Assembly (NCBI RefSeq): GCF_044324785.1
Contig: NZ_CP172127.1
Reading direction: 5' to 3' (one strand)
Source: Escherichia coli
Lineage (GTDB): Bacteria; Pseudomonadota; Gammaproteobacteria; Enterobacterales; Enterobacteriaceae
DNA length: 64,000 nucleotides
In this document: positions 57,519-59,340 of the stretch, piece after piece
Layout: each line of letters starts with the position of its first letter
Position numbering within the stretch: the first letter of the stretch is position 1
Program-made: the position numbers and the translations under genes
Notes under the pieces: model-generated
The model's database searches: none
The model's input: only the letters and a program-made list of their open reading frames with translations
Told to the model about the DNA's origin: nothing

Positions 57519-57623
57519 TCCCTGATACCTTTTTGTAGAAATATTGACCGTGCATCCGCGGTCAATGTTAGCTATTATGTTGCGCCCTTTTTTTACGGGT
57601 GTTAACAAAGGAGGTATCAACCC

Positions 57624-58490
57624 ATGGCCGAAAAAAAACAGTGGCATGAAACGCTACACGACCAGTTTGGGCAGTACTTTGCGGTAGATAACGTTCTGTA
57701 TCATGAAAAGACCGATCACCAGGATCTGATCATTTTTGAGAACGCCGCATTTGGCCGCGTAATGGCGCTGGATGGCGTAGTACAAACCACCGAGCGCGAC
57801 GAGTTTATCTATCATGAGATGATGACCCATGTTCCGCTACTGGCCCACGGTCACGCGAAACATGTGCTGATTATCGGCGGCGGCGACGGTGCCATGCTGC
57901 GTGAAGTAACCCGACATAAAAACGTTGAGTCAATCACGATGGTGGAAATCGATGCGGGTGTCGTGTCGTTCTGCCGTCAGTATCTACCCAACCATAACGC
58001 CGGTAGCTACGACGATCCGCGCTTTAAACTGGTGATCGACGATGGCGTCAATTTCGTTAATCAAACCAGCCAGACCTTTGATGTCATTATCTCCGACTGC
58101 ACCGATCCTATCGGTCCCGGCGAAAGTCTGTTCACCTCAGCATTTTATGAAGGATGCAAACGTTGCCTGAATCCTGGCGGTATCTTCGTCGCACAAAACG
58201 GCGTCTGCTTTTTACAGCAGGAAGAGGCTATCGACAGTCATCGCAAACTCAGCCATTACTTCAGCGATGTTGGCTTTTATCAGGCGGCGATCCCGACCTA
58301 TTACGGCGGCATCATGACCTTTGCATGGGCGACAGATAACGACGCCTTACGCCATCTCTCAACCGAAATTATTCAGGCGCGTTTTCTCGCCTCTGGCCTG
58401 AAATGCCGTTATTACAATCCGGCAGTCCATACGGCAGCTTTTGCCTTACCCCAGTATCTGCAAGACGCACTGGCTTCACAGCCGTCCTAA
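57624..58490 (+). CDS. speE: spermidine synthase
   Basis: 288-aa [64 protein letters not shown]... Confidence 0.97.
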
Positions 58491-59304: not shown

Positions 59305-59340
59305 TCTGGCGGAGCTCCCAGGCTCCGCCAGATTTATTTA
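59305..59340. terminator. Bidirectional terminator between convergent speD and yacL
   Basis: ctggcggagc (59306-59315) - tcccag - gctccgccag (59322-59331), followed by atttattta. Confidence 0.65.

Follow-up and report, generated by a model that had tools for sequence, protein, structure and literature searches.

A conserved block upstream of speE in Escherichia coli consists of the mapped proximal promoter of the gene together with an RNA hairpin (hairpin 1) of the transcript that arrives from upstream. We tentatively favor, at slightly less than an even chance, a role for hairpin 1 as a boundary that insulates the yacC and speED transcripts from each other, by a mechanism that we infer to combine occlusion of the speE ribosome-binding site with the action of Rho. 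The speED genes make spermidine, and little has been described of how E. coli regulates this operon. The window (the whole stretch of E. coli DNA that was analyzed, 64 kb in length) carries cueO (−), yacC (+), speE (+), and speD (+) in this order, and RefSeq annotation of matching E. coli genomes agrees. The upstream gene yacC (57171-57518, 115 aa) has its own transcription start at 57148-57150, and the downstream gene speE occupies 57624-58490; the features of the spacer between them are given on the + strand.

The first-pass annotation had reported a palindrome between yacC and speE. The palindrome is real, with the correction that its arms are 8 bp long rather than 7 and that it lies 58-81 nt 5' of the speE ATG (57624). 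The perfect inverted repeat, ATTGACCG-N8-CGGTCAAT, spans 57543-57566 without regard to strand, its arms at 57543-57550 (ATTGACCG) and 57559-57566 (CGGTCAAT) being separated by 8 nt, and a repeat search lengthens the arms to 11 nt, with 91% complementarity. In RNA, the sequence from 57540 to 57569 (AATATTGACCGTGCATCCGCGGTCAATGTT) is predicted to fold into hairpin 1, in which a 13-bp stem pairs 57540-57552 with 57557-57569 around a CAUC loop (57553-57556), with a folding energy of −18 kcal/mol and z = −4.9 versus shuffles. The stem starts 22 nt, and the palindrome 25 nt, after the yacC stop codon (TAA, 57516-57518). An 8-bp inverted repeat by itself is at chance level, with about 10 expected per 64 kb; perfect 8-bp inverted repeats with spacers of 3-12 nt are found at 54 positions of the window, compared to 12.4 ± 4.2 in dinucleotide shuffles. 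As the palindrome alone is not above chance, its significance rests on conservation and covariation. No second copy of it was found in the 64-kb window, and a 43-mer from this site occurs, unannotated, at one place per genome in 5286 E. coli genomes, with an identity of at least 99% in 5271 of these. This single-copy state rules out a dispersed repeat, whether REP/BIME or other. A cmscan search of the spacer against Rfam 15 (E ≤ 10) returned only two sub-threshold snoRNA matches, and no match to a SAM-I or spermidine riboswitch. Hairpin 1 is an unannotated example of a familiar type of element.

The conservation of the spacer was analyzed in 80 loci encoding close relatives of SpeE, drawn from Enterobacteriaceae, Erwiniaceae, Yersiniaceae, and Dickeya. 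The conserved blocks follow one another in the order TTGCTGAAAT, hairpin 1, GTTAGC-TAT(G/C/T)AT-GTT, a second hairpin (hairpin 2) with a U-rich loop, TGTTAAC, AAGGAGG, and ATG, and about 50 of the 80 loci have an intact hairpin 1 (−10 kcal/mol or better). For covariation, we used 67 distinct 36-mers from Enterobacteriaceae, Erwiniaceae, and Yersiniaceae, anchored on an invariant CCGTGC. Among these 67 sequences, 78.9% of the cells in the 13-bp stem are paired, compared to 28-44% with the 3' partners slid, and the covariation score is 0.264 as opposed to 0.05-0.10 in the slid controls, a value that none of 500 shuffles reached. Double compensatory changes are present at four pairs, namely AU<->UA (25/24), AU<->CG/UA/UG, GC<->AU, and AU<->GC, and in an RNAalifold consensus of 30 whole spacers the stem of hairpin 1 is the sole helix predicted. 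We take compensatory base pairs in excess of controls as the mark of a conserved structured RNA, and hairpin 1 displays them. The same results bear on the explanation that the palindrome has no function of its own and is a by-product of constrained promoter DNA and chance complementarity. The background frequency of 8-bp inverted repeats would allow this, as would the constraint that the promoter places on much of the region anyway; against it stand the four doubly compensated pairs, the shuffles, and the collapse of pairing in the slid controls, and we consider it extremely improbable.

The non-Watson-Crick cells of the stem show a strong bias between the strands. In the hairpin-bearing sequences they comprise 70 G·U and 9 A·C; leaving out a conserved U·G pair reduces this to 48 against 9, and G·U outnumbers A·C at 10 of 12 positions. 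An A·C mismatch would read as G·U on the other strand, and no bias is expected from a symmetric protein-DNA contact; the asymmetry therefore points to selection on the sense-strand RNA of yacC/speE. The pattern of substitution indicates that hairpin 1 is in all probability an RNA structure selected on the sense strand, and not a DNA operator.

The position of the palindrome relative to transcription starts could be established from published maps, using the conversion K-12 coordinate = 194088 minus window position. The speE start falls at 57584-57588. G57584 corresponds to K-12 136504, the speE start in the table of Kim et al. 2012 (18 reads, 40-nt 5'UTR), and the upstream sequence given there, TGTAGAAATATTGACCGTGCATCCGCGGTCAATGTTAGCTATTATGTTGCG, matches the window exactly; 57588 corresponds to K-12 136500 in SMRT-Cappable-seq, which reported speE|speD operons from 136500 and 136550. 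The −10 hexamer of this proximal promoter, TATTAT (57573-57578), ends 6 nt 5' of the mapped start and takes the form TAT[G/C/T]AT in 71 of 75 loci, its last T being invariant across all 80. Numbered from 57584, the palindrome covers −41 to −18 and overlaps the −35 and spacer region. Since the main start lies 3' of the palindrome, the latter is missing from the main 40-nt speE leader. A scan for consensus sigma-70 promoters between 56900 and 57800 called nothing at the palindrome. The bases at the −35 position (CCGTGCA, −36 to −30) are unlike TTGACA yet invariant, and GTGCAT stands at the 17-bp position. In Klebsiella pneumoniae, two genes lie between yacC and speE, and the speE start is 8 nt further upstream and uses a TATAGT that stands where E. 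coli has the right arm.

The suggestion in the first-pass annotation that TTGACC (57544-57549) could serve as the −35 element did not survive this mapping. The hexamer lies 23 bp from the conserved TATTAT, as opposed to the accepted 16-18 bp, and its counterparts in relatives read ATGACC, TGGCCG, TAGCCG, or TCCACC while the −10 is conserved; with the wrong spacing and no conservation, TTGACC is not the −35. The arrangement of TTGACC followed by a dyad upstream of a −10 is reminiscent of MerR-type promoters such as that of the neighboring CueR-dependent cueO, but these have a 19-20 bp separation, in contrast to the 23 bp at speE, where moreover the hexamer is not conserved. The cueO-yacC interval itself has a dyad, CCTTCCC-N5-GGGAAGG followed by GGTCAA (57059-57081); read on the − strand this gives TTGACC, a 19-bp spacer containing the dyad, and TATGCT, which resembles the known CueR (MerR-type) promoter of cueO, and the cueO start by SMRT-Cappable-seq is at K-12 137042, window 57046. 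A leader peptide or upstream ORF was also considered for the speE spacer, with an ATG at 57577 and a 47-aa ORF at 57544 as candidates, and was rejected: there is no Shine-Dalgarno sequence, and indels in the loop of hairpin 2 break the frame between species.

Hairpin 1 has decayed in most lineages with DNA inserted between yacC and speE, for example in Klebsiella/Raoultella, Atlantibacter, and locus L032; the inserted DNA in the decayed lineages brings its own terminator-like hairpin, and promoter motifs persist there. Exceptions are two insertion lineages (L004 and L054) that retain hairpin 1, and a subset of Kosakonia together with Dickeya, which lost it without an insertion. CCGTGC (57548-57553), which forms the inner left arm and occupies −36 to −31 of the speE promoter, is invariant in 67 of the 67 sequences anchored on it, and it remains in Klebsiella, Raoultella, Atlantibacter, some Kosakonia, Yersinia, and Dickeya, whose right arms have decayed. 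A TTGCTGAAAT-like sequence (57533-57542) also persists without the right arm, and in Klebsiella, where yacC is not adjacent. Because CCGTGC outlives hairpin 1, part of the conservation has another cause, probably at the level of DNA or the promoter. Neither motif resembles a sigma-70 −35, and the two suggest that the speE promoter may be under an additional DNA-level constraint, for example an unusual −35 contact or a factor.

The invariance of CCGTGC is also an argument for an alternative that the first-pass annotation had preferred to a terminator, namely that the palindrome is the binding site of a dimeric regulator. As a putative operator of the proximal speE promoter, centered at about −29.5, it would allow the regulator to repress or remodel the promoter. 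An overlap of −41 to −18 with the core promoter, relative to a start mapped by two methods, is a typical operator position; the inner half-site is retained in spite of a degraded hairpin in Klebsiella, Yersinia, and Dickeya; and the promoter has no recognizable −35, suggesting dependence on a factor. In E. coli, rifampicin or fidaxomicin is reported to cause a specific increase of speE mRNA, a response to RNA polymerase inhibitors for which the authors offer no mechanism (PMC13256715), and a regulator acting at speE could fit here as well. An operator would, however, be expected to show fixed half-sites and strand-symmetric substitutions, and neither is seen. The outer arms differ in sequence (ATTGA, AATGA, CTCTG, CTATA, GTAG) while their complementarity is kept, the mismatches carry the G·U bias described above, and several clades have lost the right half-site and kept the left, leaving a single half-site in many lineages. 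A literature search found no regulator acting at speE and no binding data for the yacC-speE spacer, and references to yacC or speE in the Reg-Seq and FEDS papers are made only in passing. Motifs of the CRP/FNR-like, MerR-like, NtrC, ArcA, PhoP, IHF, and sigma-54, -E, and -32 types were compared by eye, which is weak evidence, and misfit in spacing or core bases. The regulator-site proposal is not supported, and we regard an operator as distinctly improbable.

Not all speE transcripts begin at the proximal promoter. In addition to the speE|speD operons, SMRT-Cappable-seq reported a yacC-only transcript from 136938, marked as shorter than the yacC-speE-speD operon of RegulonDB, and its speE|speD start at 136550 defines a minor speED start at window 57538 that was seen by this method alone and that places hairpin 1 at +3. 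The RNAs predicted to include hairpin 1 are accordingly that of the RegulonDB yacC-speED operon and the 136550 transcript, while the main speE transcript excludes it. This divides the first-pass proposal of an RNA structure in the speED leader. The RNA structure itself is upheld by the compensatory changes and by the preference for G·U over A·C; the main 40-nt leader, starting at 57584 or about 57588, does not include the palindrome, which is carried only by yacC read-through RNA and by the minor transcript from 57538. Two outcomes had been named in advance as jointly refuting the proposal, a dyad without conservation in related genomes and a transcription start that leaves it out: the dyad is conserved in relatives, and the main start does leave it out of the leader.

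The minor start raises the further possibility that hairpin 1 is the 5'-terminal stabilizing stem-loop of an alternative speED mRNA, protecting it in an ompA-like manner from decay that depends on the 5' end. RNA beginning at 57538 is predicted to carry hairpin 1 at +3 to +32 with the Shine-Dalgarno sequence free, and an unusually long-lived speE mRNA could explain the apparent rise after rifampicin or fidaxomicin (PMC13256715). The start itself is absent from the Kim 2012 table, however, and no consensus promoter precedes it; its −10 (TACCTT) and −35 (TTGCCT) are weak and are not conserved, though hairpin 1 is. We consider this explanation very unlikely.

Hairpin 1 stands where an intrinsic terminator of yacC would be expected, as a G+C-rich stem-loop soon after a stop codon. 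The first-pass annotation had judged a terminator the less likely interpretation, and the present data agree: there is no U-tract, the terminator scan was negative, and no 3' end has been mapped. The scan, which required at least 5 T in 8 nt and covered 56900-57800, found no match at hairpin 1, and the 8 nt after the core stem contain 2-4 T in all 67 sequences (3 in E. coli). Term-seq in LB at OD 0.4, LB at OD 2.0, and M63 placed 3' ends at 136766, within yacC, and at 134752, after speD (Adams et al. 2021, PMC7815308); for none of these three conditions is a 3' end listed at hairpin 1 (136510-136530) or within 50 nt 3' of yacC.

These results constrain a broader alternative, in which hairpin 1 is a weak, non-canonical intrinsic terminator or a protector of the yacC 3' end. 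The stem, with its A-rich 5' flank GAAAUAUU and partly U-rich 3' flank AAUGUUAGCUAUUAU, would stop some polymerases or block 3' exonucleases, and would thereby fix where the yacC mRNA ends and shield the speE promoter from occlusion. The stem is stable and begins at the expected distance past the yacC stop; the flanks, which resemble an A-tract and a U-tract, are paired and conserved, and U32 and U33 never vary; yacC-only transcripts exist in the SMRT-Cappable-seq data; hairpin 1 is lost where an inserted gene brings a terminator-like hairpin; and RNA-level selection on the sense strand fits. On the other side, none of the 67 sequences has more than 4 T among the 8 nt that follow the core stem, Term-seq lists no end here yet detects high-scoring ends inside yacC and after speD, and RegulonDB treats yacC-speED as one operon. 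We consider a terminator or protector somewhat unlikely.

The spacer contains a second stem-loop. Hairpin 2 (57578-57607) is composed of UGUUGCGCCC, a U-rich loop, and then GGGUGUUAACA/GGGUG(U)UAACA; 85% of its cells are paired, with almost no double changes, and compensatory variants are visible by eye. The mapped E. coli start (57584) falls within its 5' arm. In Klebsiella the start lies 2 nt upstream of hairpin 2, which would there form a 5'-terminal stem-loop. A third helix, P1, is predicted to join the ends of the E. coli spacer: its 5' strand is the pyrimidine-rich stretch after the yacC stop (57523-57534), and its 3' strand is AAGGAGGUAUCA (57608-57619), which contains the Shine-Dalgarno sequence of speE (GGAGG, 57610-57614) together with flanking bases. 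The whole E. coli spacer folds at −41.5 kcal/mol (z = −5.7) into a three-way junction, in which hairpins 1 and 2 are closed off by P1, a 12-bp helix.

Predicted folds differ among the transcript isoforms. The leader from 57584 is unstructured (z = +0.4), and the RNA from 57538 is predicted to leave the Shine-Dalgarno sequence free beside hairpin 1. The E. coli read-through RNA folds at −46.3 kcal/mol (z = −4.2) with GGAGG held in the 12-bp helix, so that its ribosome-binding site is sequestered in a stable predicted fold. Beyond E. coli the case for P1 is weak. For 44 of 65 species, the minimum free energy fold has the Shine-Dalgarno sequence base-paired to the spacer's first 25 nt, and only 54% of P1 cells are paired across species in a MAFFT alignment. 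Cognate P1 duplexes have an advantage of 1.2 kcal/mol over non-cognate ones (p = 2e-4 before clade collapse), which falls to 0.9 kcal/mol after collapse to 22 clades (permutation p = 0.045, Wilcoxon p = 0.12). With 39% C and 16% G, the spacer has a rut-like composition that resembles a Rho-loading site, and shuffled spacers pair with the Shine-Dalgarno sequence nearly as well (z = −0.45), so the P1 effect is largely one of pyrimidine-rich composition. In four tests, a three-way junction with P1 as a conserved structure had weak support in species other than E. coli. In three loci from Phytobacter and a strain labeled Kosakonia (L018, L021, and L024), the 5' part of the spacer, at about positions 1405-1440 of these loci, has CCAGCG...CGCTGG, which can form an alternative hairpin overlapping the left arm of hairpin 1; the minimum free energy fold favors the alternative in two of the three, and such a choice of pairing is attenuator-like.

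A Rho-dependent step downstream has been reported. DirectRNA-seq with and without bicyclomycin identified a Rho-termination region that peaks at K-12 136337, window 57751, which is 127 nt into the speE ORF, with a Rho score of 3.1 and p = 1e-15 (Adams et al., PMC7815308). This suggests premature termination of some transcripts early in speE; as the region was measured in 800-nt windows, it is coarse and not assignable to read-through transcripts specifically. Taken with the isoform-specific folds around the Shine-Dalgarno sequence, the Rho region suggests a model in which read-through RNA is both untranslated at speE and terminated by Rho, and in which the productive mRNA comes from the proximal promoter.

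A transcript boundary at hairpin 1 would accommodate these observations as follows. Hairpin 1 would be transcribed as part of the yacC 3'UTR and within any RNA that reads through from yacC to speE. Together with the preceding C/U-rich spacer and with hairpin 2, it would keep the read-through RNA from serving as speE mRNA, since in E. coli the spacer of such RNA is predicted to form the three-way junction, with the speE ribosome-binding site buried in its closing helix. The 5' end of speE, untranslated on this RNA, would then be exposed to Rho. Productive speED mRNA would begin at the promoter just 3' of hairpin 1, with a 40-nt leader free of these structures. We infer three of these steps, that hairpin 1 acts on read-through RNA, that the ribosome-binding site is occluded in vivo, and that the occlusion causes Rho termination. 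Xie, Tabor, and Tabor (1989) are said to have placed the main speED promoter upstream of yacC. If that placement is correct, read-through RNA would be productive, at least on plasmids, which argues against a boundary.

The boundary at hairpin 1 may also be only part of a more elaborate device. The spacer could be a riboregulator specific to the promoter isoform, in which the three-way junction would silence speE translation only on read-through RNA and deliver that RNA to Rho, and in which the balance of read-through and proximal transcripts, or the stability of the junction as affected by polyamines or transcription speed, would set the output of spermidine synthase. We regard this more elaborate model as unlikely; if true, it could account for why speE mRNA goes up specifically when RNA polymerase is inhibited (PMC13256715). 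More generally, the combination of promoter and hairpin upstream of speE, three isoforms that differ in the predicted accessibility of the ribosome-binding site, and a Rho region in speE together provide a testable frame for the uncoupling of yacC and speED, and the isoforms combined with Rho-sensitive read-through offer a candidate explanation for speE mRNA as a specific reporter of transcription inhibition (PMC13256715). Should hairpin 1 merely be a boundary or stability element, this would be ordinary biology, and the result would chiefly be an improvement in annotation.

A comparison of hairpin 1 with familiar elements shows partial resemblance to several. In enterobacterial operons, intercistronic and 3'-UTR stem-loops of the malE-malF type delimit transcripts and give rise to differences in mRNA stability. 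Hairpin 1 shares with these its stability, its location right after a stop codon and between differently expressed genes, its conservation as RNA, and its lack of a U-tract; it differs from them in being single-copy rather than a REP/BIME element, in having no mapped 3' end, and in overlapping a promoter. With an intrinsic terminator it has in common a G+C-rich stem, a tetraloop, an A-rich 5' flank paired with a partly U-rich 3' flank, and the position after yacC, but it lacks the U-tract (at most 4 T in 8 nt) and a Term-seq 3' end. The burial of GGAGG in the E. coli read-through fold and the Rho region early in the ORF are like those leaders that sequester the ribosome-binding site and undergo Rho-dependent premature termination (Adams et al. 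2021, PMC7815308). Unlike the riboswitch and translational-repression cases in that study, the spacer has no known ligand or trans factor, and occlusion would depend on the source promoter and not on a signal. Salvail et al. 2023 (PMC10853860) described a spermidine riboswitch, a variant of SAM-I, that lies 5' of speE, speD, and speB; its characterization used a Terrisporobacter ilyis construct in Bacillus subtilis and not an enterobacterium. The yacC-speE spacer is likewise a cis-RNA upstream of spermidine-synthesis genes, but it has no similarity to this riboswitch in sequence or structure by cmscan with Rfam 15.

Two further 3' ends in the neighborhood merit description. The mid-yacC Term-seq end at K-12 136766 (window 57322) is strong and scores about as high as the speD terminator. 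The latter lies at 59305-59340, where TCTGGCGGAGCTCCCAGGCTCCGCCAGA is followed by TTTATTT, and agrees with the Term-seq 3' end at 134752.
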